From: a virus
DNA: 58,438 nt
Direction: 5' to 3' (one strand)
IMG/VR virus record: IMGVR_UViG_3300045988_075769
Coordinates: 1 to 58,438 of that record
Below, one piece after another: positions 3,460-19,599 of the stretch. Numbering within the stretch: the first letter of the stretch is position 1; every line of letters starts with the position of its first letter. The notes beneath the pieces were generated by a model that worked only from the letters and a program-made list of their open reading frames with translations, made no database searches and was not told the DNA's origin. A program made the position numbers and the translations under genes.

Positions 3460-4098
3460 ATGGGCAAGACTAATTTTCGCCGCATGATGATGCTCCGTGA
3501 CCACGACAAAAACCGTGAGCCGGAACGTGACCGCCTTGAGGAAGAACGTGACCGCAGGGAGCGTGAGATGGAACGCCGTCTGCGTAAGCTGGAAAGCGGC
3601 AACGACCGCTATCCTTACTATCCGCAGGAGGAGAACCGCTACATTGACCCCTACCCTATCCCCCGCTACCCTGACGTTGAGTATGGGCGCAAGATGCCGC
3701 AGATTGGCTTCTCGCAGAGCGGAGACTGGGACAAGCGGTCTGGACAGTATGAGCATGGCGGTGCGGACAGCCGCTCCATCAAGATGCCACGCAAGCACCT
3801 CACCCACGATGAAGCGGAAGAATGGTGCGACAGCATGGTGAACGCTGACGGCACTAAAGGCTGTCACTGGACACTGGAACAGACACAGGACGTTGCCAAA
3901 CAGCGCAATATCACCTGTGACCCGAACGATTTCTGGGCTGTCATGAACATGATGTACTCGGATTATTGCCAAGTCGCAAAGCGCCAGTCCGTTGACACTC
4001 CGGGCTTCTACGCTGACATGGCAAAAGCGTTCCTTGATGACACGGATGCCGCAGATGGTAAGGCGTATCTCTACTGGGATTGCATTACTGATAAGTAA
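3460..4098 (+). CDS. Hypothetical protein with a charged R/E/D N-terminus and a Cys-containing C-terminal domain
   Basis: RBS GAGGAGG. 212 aa, beginning REPERDRLEEERDRREREMERRLRK, followed by a globular C-terminal region. Confidence 0.65.
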   Translation: MGKTNFRRMMMLRDHDKNREPERDRLEEERDRREREMERRLRKLESGNDRYPYYPQEENRYIDPYPIPRYPDVEYGRKMPQIGFSQSGDWDKRSGQYEHGGADSRSIKMPRKHLTHDEAEEWCDSMVNADGTKGCHWTLEQTQDVAKQRNITCDPNDFWAVMNMMYSDYCQVAKRQSVDTPGFYADMAKAFLDDTDAADGKAYLYWDCITDK

Positions 4099-4102
4099 AA
4101 CA

Positions 4103-4146
4103 GAACCCCTGTACAGCCTTGATTGGTTGCACAGGGGTTTGTTCTT
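4103..4146. terminator. Bidirectional terminator between convergent blocks
   Basis: GAACCCCTGT(4103-4112) pairs with ACAGGGGTTT(4131-4140), followed by a T-rich run. Confidence 0.7.
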
Positions 4147-4559
4147 TAGCAAGTTCCGGTATCTCCGATTTTTTGCATAGTGCTTTTAAGATTTGGCACA
4201 TCTTCTTCCGGCATTTTACGTTTGATACCAATAATCGCTTGCGTGATTCCCGCTTTATTTAACTGGTTTACAGACTTACGAAATACAAAATCAATGTTCA
4301 TATTTGTCTTGATTGTTCCGTCATCTTCAAGATAACAGTTTGGAATCCACACGTTTTGATTGCTTCCGTTGATTTTGAAACGCTTTGCTTTGTAGCAACC
4401 GTAGTCCTCTCTTACAATCAGCTCAACAGGAATACCCTTGTAATACTGCGTGTCAGTATTGTACTCTTCAGCCAGTTTTGCTTTACGTTTTGCTACCTCT
4501 GCGTTTATTTTAGCTTGTTCCTCTTTGCTTCTGTGCTTGTGTGGCTTATATGTGCGCAT
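4146..4559 (-). CDS. Hypothetical protein (137 aa), last gene of the rep-par operon
   Basis: ATG at 4559 is preceded by GGAGAG. The 180-aa ORF extension upstream has no RBS. Confidence 0.6.
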   Translation of the reverse strand: MRTYKPHKHRSKEEQAKINAEVAKRKAKLAEEYNTDTQYYKGIPVELIVREDYGCYKAKRFKINGSNQNVWIPNCYLEDDGTIKTNMNIDFVFRKSVNQLNKAGITQAIIGIKRKMPEEDVPNLKSTMQKIGDTGTC

Positions 4560-4578
4560 TTTTCTCTCCTCACATAAA

Positions 4579-4848
4579 TTATTTTTCTTTTGTGTAGTAC
4601 AATTCCATATCTTCCTTGTACATATCAAGTTGTCTTTTGCTATCCATAAGTGTGTTAAAACTAATTCCCGCCGTAAAAGATACAGCAATGGACAAAATCA
4701 AGTGCGTTGCAACCCATTTACCAGCAAAGATAAACGGAATCTGAACTGCTACGGCAAAAGCATCGAGCAAAAGAACGTAAATGCCATGTTTAACCATTTT
4801 CTGTAAACGGATAATACTTCCTTCGTAAAATTCCTTCGACCTCATCAT
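4579..4848 (-). CDS. Small membrane protein (2 predicted TM helices)
   Basis: 89 aa with hydrophobic stretches GIYVLLLDAFAVAVQIPFIFAG and THLILSIAVSFTAGISF. It starts 3 nt after the AAA+ gene stop. Confidence 0.6.
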   Translation of the reverse strand: MMRSKEFYEGSIIRLQKMVKHGIYVLLLDAFAVAVQIPFIFAGKWVATHLILSIAVSFTAGISFNTLMDSKRQLDMYKEDMELYYTKEK

Positions 4849-16610: not shown

Positions 16611-17030
16611 ATGCTTAACTCTATCGCAATTCAGGGGCGTCTGGTTCACACGCCTGAAGCTAAGGTCACGAAGTCTGGCAAGGATGTTTGCACGTTCAGC
16701 ATTGCCTGCGACCGTCAGAGCGGCGGCCAGAAGGAAACCGACTTCTTCAACTGCACCGCATTTGGTAATACGGCACTGTTCGTTTCCAAGTGGTTCCAGA
16801 AGGGCAGCCTGATTTTGGTGACTGGTAGCATCCAGACCCGGAAGTATACCGACAAGCAGGGAAACAACCGCACCGCAACGGAAATCATGGCAAACAAGGT
16901 TGATTTCTGCGGTGGCAAGTCTGACAGCAAACCCGCCGATCGGGCGCAGGATGCACCACAGAACTATTCGCAGGGAAACGCAGATGACTTCTCTGTGATT
17001 GACGACAGTTCTGATCTCCCTTTTGACTAA
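16611..17030 (+). CDS. ssb: Single-stranded DNA-binding protein
   Basis: OB-fold pattern MLNSIAIQGRLVHTPE...TDFFNCTAFG...ILVTGSIQTRKYTDKQG, with an acidic tail ending DDSSDLPFD. Confidence 0.9.
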   Translation: MLNSIAIQGRLVHTPEAKVTKSGKDVCTFSIACDRQSGGQKETDFFNCTAFGNTALFVSKWFQKGSLILVTGSIQTRKYTDKQGNNRTATEIMANKVDFCGGKSDSKPADRAQDAPQNYSQGNADDFSVIDDSSDLPFD

Positions 17031-17068: not shown

Positions 17069-17635
17069 ATGGAGGAACTTTGGAAAGACATTCCGGGATA
17101 TGAGGGGCTTTATCAAGCATCGAATCTTGGAAGAATCAGAAGCGCACCGGGTAAAATAACATCTTCTGCAAGGTATAAAGTCAGAGTTTGGAAAACAAGA
17201 ATTATTAAGCCGAAAACAGAAAGAAGATACAGAGACTCAAAAGGGAACGCAGATGAACGAGTTGAACTTTGGAAAAGCGGCTCTCATAAAACTATGTTGG
17301 TTTCAAGGCTTGTCGCTATGGCTTGGGTTGATGGATACGAACCAAATTTGACAGTAAACCATATTGATGGCAATCCGTCAAACAACATTCCCGAAAATTT
17401 GGAATGGGTGACTATTGGAGAAAACGTAAAGAAGGGCTTCCAAGAAGGCCTTTTTGAAAAGTGCTGTAAAGATGTCGCGCTCATATCTCCAACTGGTGAA
17501 ATTCATTACTTTGGAACATTAAGAGCCGCTTCAAAATTTTTGGGAAAGAATAACGGCTATTTGAACGAACGCCAGAAGCGAAATTACAAGACTGGGATTG
17601 ATTCAAATGGTACGCATTGGCTAATTAGAGCCTGA
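17069..17635 (+). CDS. HNH homing endonuclease (NUMOD4 + HNH_3)
   Basis: WKDIPGYEGLYQASNLGRIRS is the NUMOD4 motif. VNHIDGNPSNNIPENLEWVTIGEN is the HNH motif. Confidence 0.85.
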   Translation: MEELWKDIPGYEGLYQASNLGRIRSAPGKITSSARYKVRVWKTRIIKPKTERRYRDSKGNADERVELWKSGSHKTMLVSRLVAMAWVDGYEPNLTVNHIDGNPSNNIPENLEWVTIGENVKKGFQEGLFEKCCKDVALISPTGEIHYFGTLRAASKFLGKNNGYLNERQKRNYKTGIDSNGTHWLIRA

Positions 17636-17688: not shown

Positions 17689-19599
17689 ATGAAACACTTG
17701 GGCGACATCACAAAGATTCACGGCGACAAGATAGAGCCTGTGGATTGCATCACGTTCGGTAGCCCATGTCAGGACTTGTCCATTGCTGGACGCAGGGCTG
17801 GACTTGCCGGAGAACGCTCCGGGCTATTCATAGAAGCGGTTCGAATCATAAAGGAAATGAGGTCAAGCACAAATGGATTGCATCCAACTTTCGCTATTTG
17901 GGAGAACGTGCCCGGAGCATTCAGTTCCAACGGAGGAGAAGATTTCAGAGCCGTGCTGGAAGAACTTGCCCGCATTGAACAGCCAGACGTTTCAATTCCT
18001 CGACCTTCGGGTAGGGGGGGCAGATGGAGCAAAGCTGGAGCAATCGCCGGAAATGGATGGAGCTTGGCTTGGAGACAGCTCGACGCTCAATATTGGGGAG
18101 TTCCCCAGAGAAGAAAACGTATCGCTCTTGTCGTGGATTTTGCAGGTCAACGCGCCGGAGAAATACTATTTGAGCGAACGAGCCTGTCAAGGCATCCTGA
18201 TTCGCGCATCCCGGCGTGGAAAGAAATTGCCGGACTTACTGCAAACTGCCCTGCTGGAAATGATGGAGTGGTGGGAGCCGGGCGCGGCCGCAAAGGCGAT
18301 GGAAATGCTGATTGCAGAAGAACAGAAACGGATAAGACGGGAGAAGCTGACCGCTCTGAACGAGAGGAAAGAACGGATAAGAGAGAAAGCAGAGAAGCAG
18401 CTGCGTACTCTCTTAAAATCCGCTCTGGCTGTGCCGGGGGCGGAAAGGGCGCACTTGTGCAAACAGAAAAAGTCGGGACGCTATCGACACTCCAAGACCA
18501 GACGATTTTCCAGCTAGTGCAAGCCGGGGAGATAATCCCAATAAACACACAAATCGCTACAAGACACATCTCGATGGGGGAAAAAACAGGTCTTGGAGTT
18601 GGAAAGAATGGAGACCCGTCCTTTACTCTACAGGCACGGCATGAACACGGCGTGTGCTATTGCATTGCGGGAAACATTGTTGACAGAGCCGATACGGCAG
18701 GGGCGAACGGCTTGGGCGCAAAAGAAGAAGTGGGCTATACACTGAACACAATCGACCGTCATGCAGTTGCGTATTCCATAAATCCGTTGTCAAGTAACAG
18801 CATGAAATCGGCAAATCCGTACAGCGGGTTCAATGAAACAGGTGTAAGTAAAACGCTCGACTGCTCTGACGCAAACCCAACGAAGAATCAGGGAGGACTT
18901 GCCATCGTTCAGCCGATTCCGATTCAAGACAAAACAGGAACCCTTTCGCCCGGCGCTCACGCTGGAAGCTACAATGGACAGGATGCTTACAACGATATGC
19001 TGGTAAGGTGCAGAGTTTTTGACGCAAGAGGTAATGGAAATGGAAAGATAGTTCCGACCATTACGGGAGATCACGAAAGCAGAATCACAGACTACACGGC
19101 AATCGTAACAGAACCGGAAGATTGTTTGACACCGTGGGATAATCAAGCTCGGAGGATATATAGCGAGAACGGAACGTTTCCAGCGCTGGCTGCAAGAGAA
19201 AAAGCGGGGCAAAATCAGCAGTCCGTCCTAACGGAAACGGAAATTAGGTGGATAGTCCGCAGACTGACCCCAACGGAATGCGAACGTCTGCAAGGCTACC
19301 CGGACGGCTGGACAGATATCGGAGAGTGGGTAGACACAAAGGGTAAGAAGCACAAGCCGACGGACAGTCCGCGCTATAAAGCGCTTGGAAATTCCATTGC
19401 ACTTCCTCAGTGGTTCTGGATTGCACAGAAGATGAAGCCTTATCTGAGCGAAAATTCCACGCTAGGCAGTCTGTTCGATGGTATAGGCGGCTTTCCGCTT
19501 GTTTGGCAAAAGACTTATGGAAACGGTACGGCACGATGGGCGAGCGAAGTTGATAGCTTCTGCATTGCCGTTACAAAAAGGAGATTCGGCGAAGAATGA
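17689..19599 (+). CDS. C5 cytosine DNA methyltransferase, circularly permuted (IV-X then I-II)
   Basis: Motif order along the ORF: GSPCQDLS (IV), FAIWENVPG (VI), VPQRRKRI (VIII), RRLTPTECERLQGYP (IX), YKALGNSIALP (X), and finally LFDGIGGFP (I) and WASEVD (II) at the C-terminus. Confidence 0.8.
   Translation: MKHLGDITKIHGDKIEPVDCITFGSPCQDLSIAGRRAGLAGERSGLFIEAVRIIKEMRSSTNGLHPTFAIWENVPGAFSSNGGEDFRAVLEELARIEQPDVSIPRPSGRGGRWSKAGAIAGNGWSLAWRQLDAQYWGVPQRRKRIALVVDFAGQRAGEILFERTSLSRHPDSRIPAWKEIAGLTANCPAGNDGVVGAGRGRKGDGNADCRRTETDKTGEADRSEREERTDKRESREAAAYSLKIRSGCAGGGKGALVQTEKVGTLSTLQDQTIFQLVQAGEIIPINTQIATRHISMGEKTGLGVGKNGDPSFTLQARHEHGVCYCIAGNIVDRADTAGANGLGAKEEVGYTLNTIDRHAVAYSINPLSSNSMKSANPYSGFNETGVSKTLDCSDANPTKNQGGLAIVQPIPIQDKTGTLSPGAHAGSYNGQDAYNDMLVRCRVFDARGNGNGKIVPTITGDHESRITDYTAIVTEPEDCLTPWDNQARRIYSENGTFPALAAREKAGQNQQSVLTETEIRWIVRRLTPTECERLQGYPDGWTDIGEWVDTKGKKHKPTDSPRYKALGNSIALPQWFWIAQKMKPYLSENSTLGSLFDGIGGFPLVWQKTYGNGTARWASEVDSFCIAVTKRRFGEE
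17873..18517 (+). CDS. Embedded +1-frame ORF (214 codons) inside the MTase gene; candidate overprinted gene
   Basis: ATG lies 10 nt after GAGG. The translation looks like a real protein (PEKYYLSERACQGILIRASRRGKKLP followed by a K/E/R coiled coil) over the stretch where the MTase frame turns low-complexity. Confidence 0.35.
   Translation: MDCIQLSLFGRTCPEHSVPTEEKISEPCWKNLPALNSQTFQFLDLRVGGADGAKLEQSPEMDGAWLGDSSTLNIGEFPREENVSLLSWILQVNAPEKYYLSERACQGILIRASRRGKKLPDLLQTALLEMMEWWEPGAAAKAMEMLIAEEQKRIRREKLTALNERKERIREKAEKQLRTLLKSALAVPGAERAHLCKQKKSGRYRHSKTRRFSS

Follow-up and report, generated by a model that had tools for sequence, protein, structure and literature searches.

A second reading frame within a methyltransferase gene

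The window analysed here comprises positions 1 to 58,438 (58,438 nucleotides, nt) of the IMG/VR virus record IMGVR_UViG_3300045988_075769. Between positions 17,689 and 19,599 it carries a gene for a C5 cytosine DNA methyltransferase (MTase) with multiple target-recognition domains (TRDs), and inside this gene the +1 frame stays open for 214 codons. An earlier reading of the DNA letters, called the original prediction below, had proposed that this embedded open reading frame (ORF) encodes a real protein; the present analysis concerns this ORF, its putative product and its relation to the MTase. The features discussed are the following.

17689..19599, + strand: host gene, multi-TRD C5 cytosine DNA methyltransferase of 636 amino acids (aa) (PF00145, TIGR00675, PADLOC orphan MTase)
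17859..17862, + strand: Shine-Dalgarno (SD) core GAGG, 10 nt before the ATG, formed from the MTase codons ..ATG AGG (Met-Arg of K-E-M-R)
17873..18517, + strand: putative embedded gene, 214 codons plus stop, ATG start, in the +1 frame of the MTase gene
17873..18112, + strand: N-terminal part of the +1 protein (aa 1-80), predicted to be disordered, over MTase motifs VI-VIII
18014..18020, + strand: G7 homopolymer within the overlap, length-polymorphic
18113..18172, + strand: doubly constrained stretch, S.LS.IL..N.PEKYYLS in the +1 frame and KRIALVVDFAGQRAGEILFE in the MTase frame
18173..18277, + strand: remainder of the three-helix module (ERACQGILIRASRRGKKLPDLLQTALLEMMEWW), where +1 appears as the selected frame
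18278..18412, + strand: clade-specific K/E/R-rich long helix (about aa 136-180), carried on an insertion
18413..18517, + strand: passenger tail (about aa 181-214) and TAG stop, over the conserved MTase segment YSLKIRSGCAGGGKGALVQTEKVGTLSTLQDQ

By its sequence, the host gene product is identified as a C5 cytosine DNA methyltransferase (PF00145), in which motifs IV, VI, VIII, IX, X and I can be read (GSPCQ, WENVPG, QRRKR, RRLTPxECERLQG, GNS and LFDGIGG). The Pfam scan gave an E-value of 1.4e-33 against PF00145, and the protein also matches TIGR00675 (NCBIfam) and the PADLOC orphan MTase (E 1e-107). The enzyme is circularly permuted: it begins just 5′ of motif IV (GSPCQ) and runs from motifs IV-X to motifs I-II, which form its C-terminal end (LGSLFDGIGGFPLV...WASEVDSFCIAVTKRRF, about 19462-19587). 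The C-terminal 42 aa align with the N-terminus of non-permuted relatives (52% identity, E 9e-10). This permuted order is common to all relatives of the phage clade; the homologues from Bacillota genomes have the canonical order.

The embedded ORF starts 184 nt downstream of the MTase start (17873-17689), which places it in the +1 frame. Over the whole MTase gene this frame contains 24 stops, none of which falls in 17873-18514; they flank the ORF closely, at 17849 and 17858 before it and at 18515, 18533 and 18542 after it. The +2 frame contains 11 stops within the same span. The ORF and its GAGG (17859-17862, 10 nt before the ATG), as described in the original prediction, were recovered from the ORF list and the sequence, and the peptides quoted there, together with two codon-by-codon correspondences to MTase motifs, from the translations: SLFGRTCPEHS in the +1 frame corresponds to FAIWENVPGAFS in the MTase frame, and IGEFPREENV to YWGVPQRRKR. 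The N-terminus of the +1 protein reads MDCIQLSLFGRTCPEHS. Across 18275-18400, the MTase frame encodes a low-complexity linker, GRGRKGDGNADCRRTETDKTGEADRSEREERTDKRESRE.

Conservation of the open frame and selection upon it

Relatives of the host gene were fetched with MTase-frame queries only, so that the sampling was blind to the +1 frame. Set A comprises 88 loci with an MTase identity of 58-100%, drawn from metagenomes and from 80 phage contigs of IMG/VR. For set B, 80 loci were taken from different genomes of Bacillota, type strains and complete genomes among them; 77 of these loci have recognisable ENV..QRR motifs. Set C consists of 83 P1-like or proteobacterial phage loci. The +1 frame is open from relative nt 173, with an ATG at relative nt 184, in nearly all loci of set A, where the ORF measures 137-143, 175-183 or 210-220 aa; the exceptions are a locus with an internal +1 stop (L012) and one without the ATG (L025). 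It is open in 77/77 loci of set B, over 133-181 codons and with the ATG in most cases 26 nt before the Trp codon of WENV, and in 83/83 loci of set C, over 153-172 codons. Inside the overlap, the +1 frame of the homologue sets contains 0.00-0.01 stops per 128 codons, compared with 4.8-6.7 in the +2 frame over the overlap and 5.0-8.2 in the +1 frame elsewhere in the gene. A check put forward with the original prediction, for +1 stops scattered through the MTase homologues, found none scattered.

The expected frequency of an open +1 frame was modelled by keeping each MTase protein fixed and drawing synonymous codons from background usage. The median probability that the +1 frame is open, given the MTase protein, is 0.039 in set A and 0.026 in set B; for the N-terminal part alone it is 0.076 in set B, yet all loci are open. 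Flank position-3 diversity between set B genomes reaches about 0.6, indicating that synonymous sites are saturated and, therefore, that these lineages are nearly independent at the relevant sites. In these comparisons the alternate-frame ORF is kept in the homologues well above the expectation from the host protein, as would a nested gene, and both frames are seen to be kept open across a very large clade of MTase genes from phages and other mobile genetic elements, which spans Bacillota and proteobacterial phages and includes P1 dmt.

These figures bear directly on the possibility of a chance ORF, i.e., a stop-poor, purine-rich out-of-frame read whose conservation and ‘homologues’ are by-products of the MTase frame and of gene callers. 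In its favour, MTase motifs VI-VIII do dictate the first third of the ORF, and short contigs, or callers that chose the +1 frame despite an open MTase frame, are the source of many database entries. Such an ORF would be open with a probability of about 0.03 per lineage, yet it is open in nearly all loci of three sets assembled blind to it; the codon periodicity and the pN/pS-type ratios point to selection on +1 with a near-neutral MTase frame over the module, and rare codons are fixed in such a way as to keep both KYYLS and the SD core (see below). We consider this explanation extremely improbable, and the form of it that the original prediction had entertained, an ORF favoured by purine-rich repeats, is rejected on the same grounds (probability 0.026-0.039, open in nearly all homologues).

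The distribution of diversity among codon positions changes along the gene. Outside the overlap the pattern is normal, MTase position 3 being the most diverse (0.2-0.6), and inside the overlap the diversity at this position falls. In the N-terminal part the peak still lies at MTase position 3, but is lowered, and the segment 18113..18172 has low diversity at all three codon positions. Between 18169 and 18288 the peak shifts to MTase position 1, which is position 3 of the +1 frame, independently in sets A and B, and MTase position 3 (position 2 of +1) becomes the least diverse; set C presents the same switch of periodicity at the edge of a highly conserved block. This profile bears out the earlier statement that the first third of the ORF is dictated by the MTase and the rest is not.

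Selection was tested by an OLGenie-type site-class analysis with codon bootstrap. For the three-helix module, the +1 pNN/pNS ratio is 0.29 (confidence interval 0.19-0.41) in set A and 0.29 (0.21-0.39) in set B, while the MTase-frame pNN/pSN ratio is near neutral (0.89 and 0.75, respectively). The flank controls gave +1 pNN/pNS ratios of 0.61-0.66 (A) and 0.93 (B), and MTase-frame pNN/pSN ratios of 0.10-0.28. In the N-terminal part, the MTase frame is strongly constrained and +1 pNN/pNS is 0.44 (A) and 0.75 (B). The suppression of synonymous variation in the MTase frame, which the original prediction had suggested looking for, was found over the overlap. The alternate frame is under purifying selection and synonymous change in the host frame is suppressed, as expected of a nested gene. 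Over the module, the MTase frame is shown by the same ratios to behave as a nearly neutral passenger, a linker or spacer apparently kept merely stop-free.

Codon usage in the doubly constrained stretch points in the same direction. In the MTase-frame motif [E/K]-I-L-F-[E/K], Ile is encoded by ATA in 68/70 and 40/43 sequences (background 23-28%) and Leu by CTA or TTA in 60/70 and 38/43 (background 10-18%); Phe is invariably TTT, and the first codon varies solely at its first base. These choices are exactly those required to preserve KYYL in the +1 frame. Conversely, the MTase frame is open through the module segment in 66/71 distinct sequences, against 0.08 expected given the +1 protein, and therefore both frames are maintained.

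The K/E/R-rich insertion is not present in short-form homologues (+1 ORF of 137-143 aa), in which the +1 ORF ends before the tail segment 18413..18517, and is different in the 175-183-aa forms. Within the long-form clade of the window (23 distinct sequences), periodicity of the +1 type extends from aa 101 to about aa 180 (18173-18412), K/E/R helix included, and returns to the MTase frame over the last ~34 codons; amino-acid identity in the tail 18413..18517 is 0.72 in the +1 frame vs 0.89 in that of the MTase. The insertion in the linker is shown to add a long K/E/R helix to the +1 protein of this phage clade.

We conclude that 17873-18517 is very likely a protein-coding overlapping gene under purifying selection; the view that it is a true overlapping gene and not out-of-frame noise is supported by both the conservation of the +1 frame and the selection tests. 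The two frames are shown to share the DNA by a complementary division, with a weakly constrained, disordered +1 arm over the essential MTase motifs VI-VIII. The division of labour is clean: the ordered module lies over a neutral linker and the disordered arm over catalytic motifs.

Initiation, product and relation to the methyltransferase

Of the distinct start contexts, 27/27 in set A and 58/63 in set B have an SD-like core 6-13 nt upstream of the +1 ATG. This core is made from the MTase codons K-E-M-R, and the codons vary together: where Lys-Glu is encoded by AAA/AAG GAA, Arg is the uncommon AGG, which makes GAGG 10 nt from the ATG, and where Lys-Glu is AAG GAG (giving AAGGAG), Arg is AGA and the ATG lies nearer. 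The Arg codon is AGG in 46 cases, AGA in 16 and CGN in one, for background usages of 18%, 26% and 56%. In P1 dmt, at locus L176, GGAG is found 7 nt upstream of an ATG at position 2240, and in gp12 of Vibrio phage vB_VchM-138 the ATG of the ORF follows GGAG at 9 nt. The conserved SD core and ATG, with their forced codons, thus appear to be translation-initiation signals belonging to the ORF itself. The +1 stop is also conserved in position, where the MTase frame enters the first conserved TRD motif (CLNDQGG or YTLKIRSGC).

Alternatively, the +1 frame could be read only within trans-frame proteins of the MTase, produced by ribosomal frameshifting or by slippage at the G7 tract. In some natural sequences, the N-terminal part of the MTase is fused to the +1 domain (P0083, P0117, P0245); in others, the remainder of the MTase follows an N-terminal part from the +1 frame (L046, L048, orf49 of phage Lelie), and both types are combined in P0137 and P0192. 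The G tract ranges from G6 to G14 among relatives. Several of these fusion sequences may, however, be homopolymer assembly errors, and homopolymers are not enriched in the overlaps of Bacillota genomes and P1-like elements, where the ORF is equally well kept. No conserved slippery heptamer was found near the end of the +1 ORF, an in-phase X_XXY_YYZ being present in just 4/69 sequences; the ATG and SD core are conserved with forcing at the codon level, and the +1 stops just upstream of the ATG (17849 and 17858) would be needless for an ORF entered by frameshift alone. We therefore rejected a programmed ribosomal frameshift product, and the frameshift-dependent isoform, which the original prediction had listed among its explanations, did not hold as a general mechanism, even though natural fusions occur; we regard it as improbable. 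With no conserved slippery heptamer and a conserved SD core and ATG, independent initiation on the MTase mRNA is favoured: the +1 protein is probably initiated at its own SD and ATG, and there is a strong probability that 17873-18517 is a genuine nested gene whose translation begins at a start of its own.

The G tract itself is a feature of the phage clade of the window, where G7 is present in 66/87 loci. Variants include G8 with a frameshift (L046, L048 and L067), an in-frame G10 (L047) and the G14 of the cultured Faecalibacterium phage Lelie (L178, site about 2640), whose annotated orf49 starts at the +1 ATG and passes into the MTase frame at the tract. Database chimeras in which a one-base change joins both frames were also observed (P0083, P0117, P0137, P0214, P0221 and P0245). 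This variation in length may mark the tract as a hypermutable or phase-variable site, or may stem from errors in sequencing homopolymers, and several of the fusion or frameshift variants may be assembly errors at homopolymers. Since the overlaps of sets B and C show no enrichment of homopolymers, slippage is at most a clade-specific overlay and not the reason for the conservation of the frame. A general, homopolymer-driven toggling of frames was rejected as a family-wide mechanism, tracts being enriched only in the phage clade of the window.

The +1 products share the consensus M..IQ....GK.SPEHS..T.E.TS..S.K......FL.L...G...E.SWE....L.G....LN.GE.P.EE.. in their first part and S.LSQIL...VPEKYYLS.KAC.GILRRA..RGKELP..L..ALE.QA. 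in their last part, with invariant positions clustered in the last 50 residues. AlphaFold2, run with 61 sequences, predicts residues 1-74 to be disordered (predicted local distance difference test, pLDDT, <50), followed by three helices (83-92, 102-115 and 121-134; pLDDT about 90) and, in the protein of the window, a long helix (138-185; pLDDT 90-97). The window protein matches 986 protein clusters, and the profile 3733 clusters at 90% identity or 2584 at 50%. A few members are deposited at NCBI as hypotheticals, for instance ‘hypothetical protein [Catenibacterium mitsuokai]’ and ‘Uncharacterised protein [Roseburia hominis]’; the stand-alone hypothetical proteins that the original prediction had mentioned are real database entries. 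No family match was obtained for the +1 protein in Pfam, NCBIfam or PADLOC. In PHROGs, the only match is phrog_16143 (‘DNA methyltransferase’; E 0.014 with the window protein, 2.4e-7 with a genome homologue). A profile search against PDB sequences gave no match at E <= 10, and Foldseek gave no significant match with the AlphaFold2 model of the window protein and, with a split-type protein (see below), nothing significant, just weak MTase matches to the motif IX-X part. The structure predicted for the split-type P0186 has TRDs of low confidence and provides no inter-domain information.

In the searches made, the +1 ORF was never found outside this clade of MTases. Among annotated phages, all tblastn matches that were checked fall within an MTase gene and in its +1 frame; for P1 dmt, gp12 of Vibrio phage 138 and Streptococcus phage Javan102, this gene is the annotated MTase coding sequence. 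In eight metagenome contigs (L001-L008, gene at 4001-4642), public gene calls consist of the +1 ORF plus a truncated MTase C-terminus of 252 or 326 aa and omit the N-terminal third of the MTase; in L001, where the locus was checked, the full 631-aa MTase frame is open. These miscalls are a systematic annotation artefact arising from the dual-coding region.

Three natural architectures can be distinguished: nested (the majority, including the window), split and in-line. In the split forms (L119, L155, L159, L169 and L175, the last from the type strain of Angelakisella massiliensis), motifs I-VIII are encoded by a first ORF, A, which ends about 105 codons past WENV, and the +1 ORF forms a second, B, that runs on for 469-541 aa and includes the TRDs as well as motifs IX-X. 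The in-line variant P0192 (539 aa, identical in five samples; L091 3001-4620) consists of the MTase N-terminal part, the +1 domain and the C-terminal half, with the motif VIII segment still open in the -1 frame and C6 and G9 tracts at its two junctions. By a gene-fusion argument, the fusion of the +1 domain to the TRD half in split forms suggests that the module functions with the TRD/small-domain half of the enzyme.

A second link comes from a classical multispecific enzyme. The hidden Markov model of the module scores 11.7 bits on LREILEEYVDEKYYLSE, a segment read in frame in the MTase of phage rho11s (best of 4000 shuffles, 5.1 bits), as foreseen in the original prediction, which had likened EKYYLS to an element at the start of the TRD region of classical 5-methylcytosine MTases. 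This segment lies between motif VIII and the first TRD of rho11s, in whose MTase gene stops abound in the +1 frame. Nested-type MTases, including that of the window, have no copy of the module in frame (best score 3.0 bits). In classical multispecific MTases, an ‘LxEILE..EKYYLSE’ element is found in frame after motif VIII and before the first TRD, and we have moderate confidence that the module originated from this element. As the nested MTase lacks this element in frame, the MTase is the protein with which the small protein most likely works; that the latter is a trans-acting MTase partner, either a subunit or a modulator, we would put at slightly less than an even chance.

In such a scheme, the element joining motif VIII to the TRDs would have moved into the +1 frame of the same gene; the small protein would be made separately from its own SD and ATG on the MTase mRNA and would supply in trans a subunit or modulator for the TRD/small-domain half of the MTase. 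Since both frames are stop-free, single indels (e.g., in the G7 tract) could interconvert nested, split and in-line forms with neither frame destroyed. More tentatively, and with some doubt, a whole clade of supposedly single-chain multispecific C5-MTases from phages and mobile elements, P1 Dmt among them, might consist of two-protein enzymes in which the MTase needs, or is regulated by, the small +1 protein.

The product of a real overlapping gene could also act independently of the MTase, as a small helical DNA-binding regulator resembling controller proteins or as an anti-defence factor. It contains a conserved, Arg/Lys-rich (RRA..RGK) three-helix bundle of 50 residues, a size typical of DNA-binding modules, the coiled-coil-like helix added in this phage clade could mediate oligomerisation, and no catalytic or MTase family signature was detected. 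Against such a role, there is no match to a helix-turn-helix (HTH) or regulator family, the ORF was confined to this MTase clade in the searches made, the domain is covalently joined to the TRD and motif IX-X half in split variants, and its first motif matches an in-frame MTase element that is missing from the host polypeptide. We judge an MTase-independent function to be unlikely. The split forms, whose C-terminal subunit is headed by the same domain, would also fit an evolutionary relic, a decaying N-terminal remnant of a former split subunit without function in single-chain genes, and aa 181-214 do look like unconstrained read-through. The module is, however, under strong purifying selection in the nested forms themselves, in sets with saturated synonymous divergence, and both the start signals and the position of the stop, at the entry to the first TRD motif, are conserved; a relic thus seems very improbable.

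Several observations weigh against a nested gene whose product serves the MTase. The N-terminal 80 residues of the +1 protein are weakly constrained. For the K/E/R helix, the pooled OLGenie-type ratio (0.63) does not differ from the control (0.61-0.66); the pooled test is indistinct because two unrelated insert types were aligned together, and the helix is backed only by periodicity within its clade. Being closely related, the P1-like loci of set C contribute little independent information about selection. Just 17 residues are similar to the canonical in-frame element. With E. coli Dcm the module aligns at the expected place, after motif VIII, but with only 2.9 bits; this weak score is within the shuffle range, and homology to that segment of Dcm was rejected. 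The support for translation consists of sequence conservation, and the function is not anchored to a characterised protein, no match having been found in Pfam, NCBIfam, PADLOC, PDB or Foldseek searches.

Surroundings of the gene and significance

The gene context of the embedded ORF consists of replication and modification genes. A gene for a single-stranded DNA-binding protein (SSB; 16611-17030) is followed by an HNH homing-endonuclease-like gene (NUMOD4 + HNH_3; 17069-17635, + strand) that ends 53 nt before the MTase start. The HNH gene is missing from related loci such as L001, which has instead a stretch of ~420 nt (L001 3342-3760) where public gene calls show nothing or just a short ORF of 60-81 aa. 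In the MTase of the window, several TRD-like repeats (…TL… modules: VGTLSTLQDQ, SFTLQARHEH, GYTLNTIDRH and IVPTITGDHESRITDYTAIV) lie between 18420 and 19400, and the homologues vary from 425 to 704 aa through gain and loss of TRD modules, which fits the expectation for a multispecific MTase. We assign the MTase of the window, from its sequence, to the single-chain multispecific C5-MTases of phages. In the P1-like contig L182, the MTase frame reads ...EVEGDHSYILNGAVVHN|CQAFSIAG about 100 codons upstream of WENV, a junction that looks like a C-terminal intein splice site at the catalytic Cys of motif IV in the Dmt C5-MTase domain. The annotated Dmt of OP279344 has 1013 aa.

The overlap is very widespread, with thousands of sequence clusters from gut Bacillota prophages, elements resembling integrative and conjugative elements, and proteobacterial phages such as P1. 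The +1 gene is mostly unannotated, and metagenome gene callers often take it over part of the MTase, which is then truncated. Should the small protein prove to be a partner of the MTase, this would change the cloning, expression and interpretation of phage and orphan multispecific MTases, and recoding or codon-optimising an MTase gene would silently abolish the second protein. As a model phage, P1 offers a direct experimental system; the tryptic peptides predicted from its +1 product include ACAGILR and LPDILQTSLSDLAMIQT.

Comparison with known systems

To our knowledge, few long nested genes on the same strand have solid evolutionary support in bacteria and phages. The spanin genes of phage lambda provide one comparison: Rz1 is fully nested in the +1 frame of Rz, has its own start signals, and the two products work together. 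The embedded ORF is likewise a same-strand gene wholly within the +1 frame of a larger gene, with putative start signals of its own; cooperation between nested and host products is known for Rz/Rz1 and proposed here. Unlike Rz1, which encodes a lipoprotein of a lysis cassette, the ORF lies in a DNA methyltransferase gene and has no sequence or functional relation to the spanins, and the overlap covers catalytic motifs and is conserved across elements of Bacillota and Proteobacteria. No lipobox was found in the +1 N-terminus, and the ORF does not have the features of an Rz1-type embedded lysis gene.

M.AquI is composed of α and β subunits produced from two overlapping ORFs, with the split in the variable region. 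The split relatives (L155, L159, L169, L175 and L119) are alike in having overlapping ORFs A and B, with the break between motif VIII and the TRD. In contrast, the MTase of the window is a single chain encoded by one 636-aa ORF and is thus not a split C5-MTase of the M.AquI type, the overlap spans ~125-215 codons instead of a few, and the nested +1 product is a separate small protein without MTase motif IX or X. Like the MTase of the window, the classical multispecific enzymes of Bacillus phages (rho11s, SPR, phi3T and H2) are phage C5-MTases with multiple TRDs; the in-frame LREILEEYVDEKYYLSE with which their variable region opens matches the beginning of the +1 module. In rho11s this element is in frame ~55 residues after motif VIII, whereas in the window it is in the +1 frame, directly over motif VIII.

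In the dcm-vsr pair of E. coli, a second gene linked to cytosine methylation likewise overlaps a C5-MTase gene in the +1 frame, but the overlap is limited to 20 nt at the 3′ end (2900-2919 of L262) and Vsr is an endonuclease dissimilar to the +1 protein, in which no match to the Vsr endonuclease family was obtained. Controller proteins of the HTH type were not recognised either: no HTH family domain was found in Pfam, NCBIfam or PADLOC and no significant structural match was obtained. MTases of phasevarions also carry a homopolymer tract in the ORF, and here length and frame changes are seen between relatives; unlike in phasevarions, the G tract is confined to the phage clade of the window and, both frames being open at this position, a slip would yield chimeric proteins and not simple truncations.

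The embedded gene therefore belongs neither to the Rz/Rz1 type, nor to the split C5-MTases exemplified by M.AquI, nor to the dcm-vsr arrangement. Full-text searches of the literature, whose scope excluded subscription-only papers and REBASE notes, found no published account of an embedded ORF in P1 dmt or in C5-MTase genes. What is new here is a deeply conserved nested gene inside an enzyme gene, with a reciprocal partition of order and disorder between the two frames, and with a product that seems to have originated as a part of this very enzyme.

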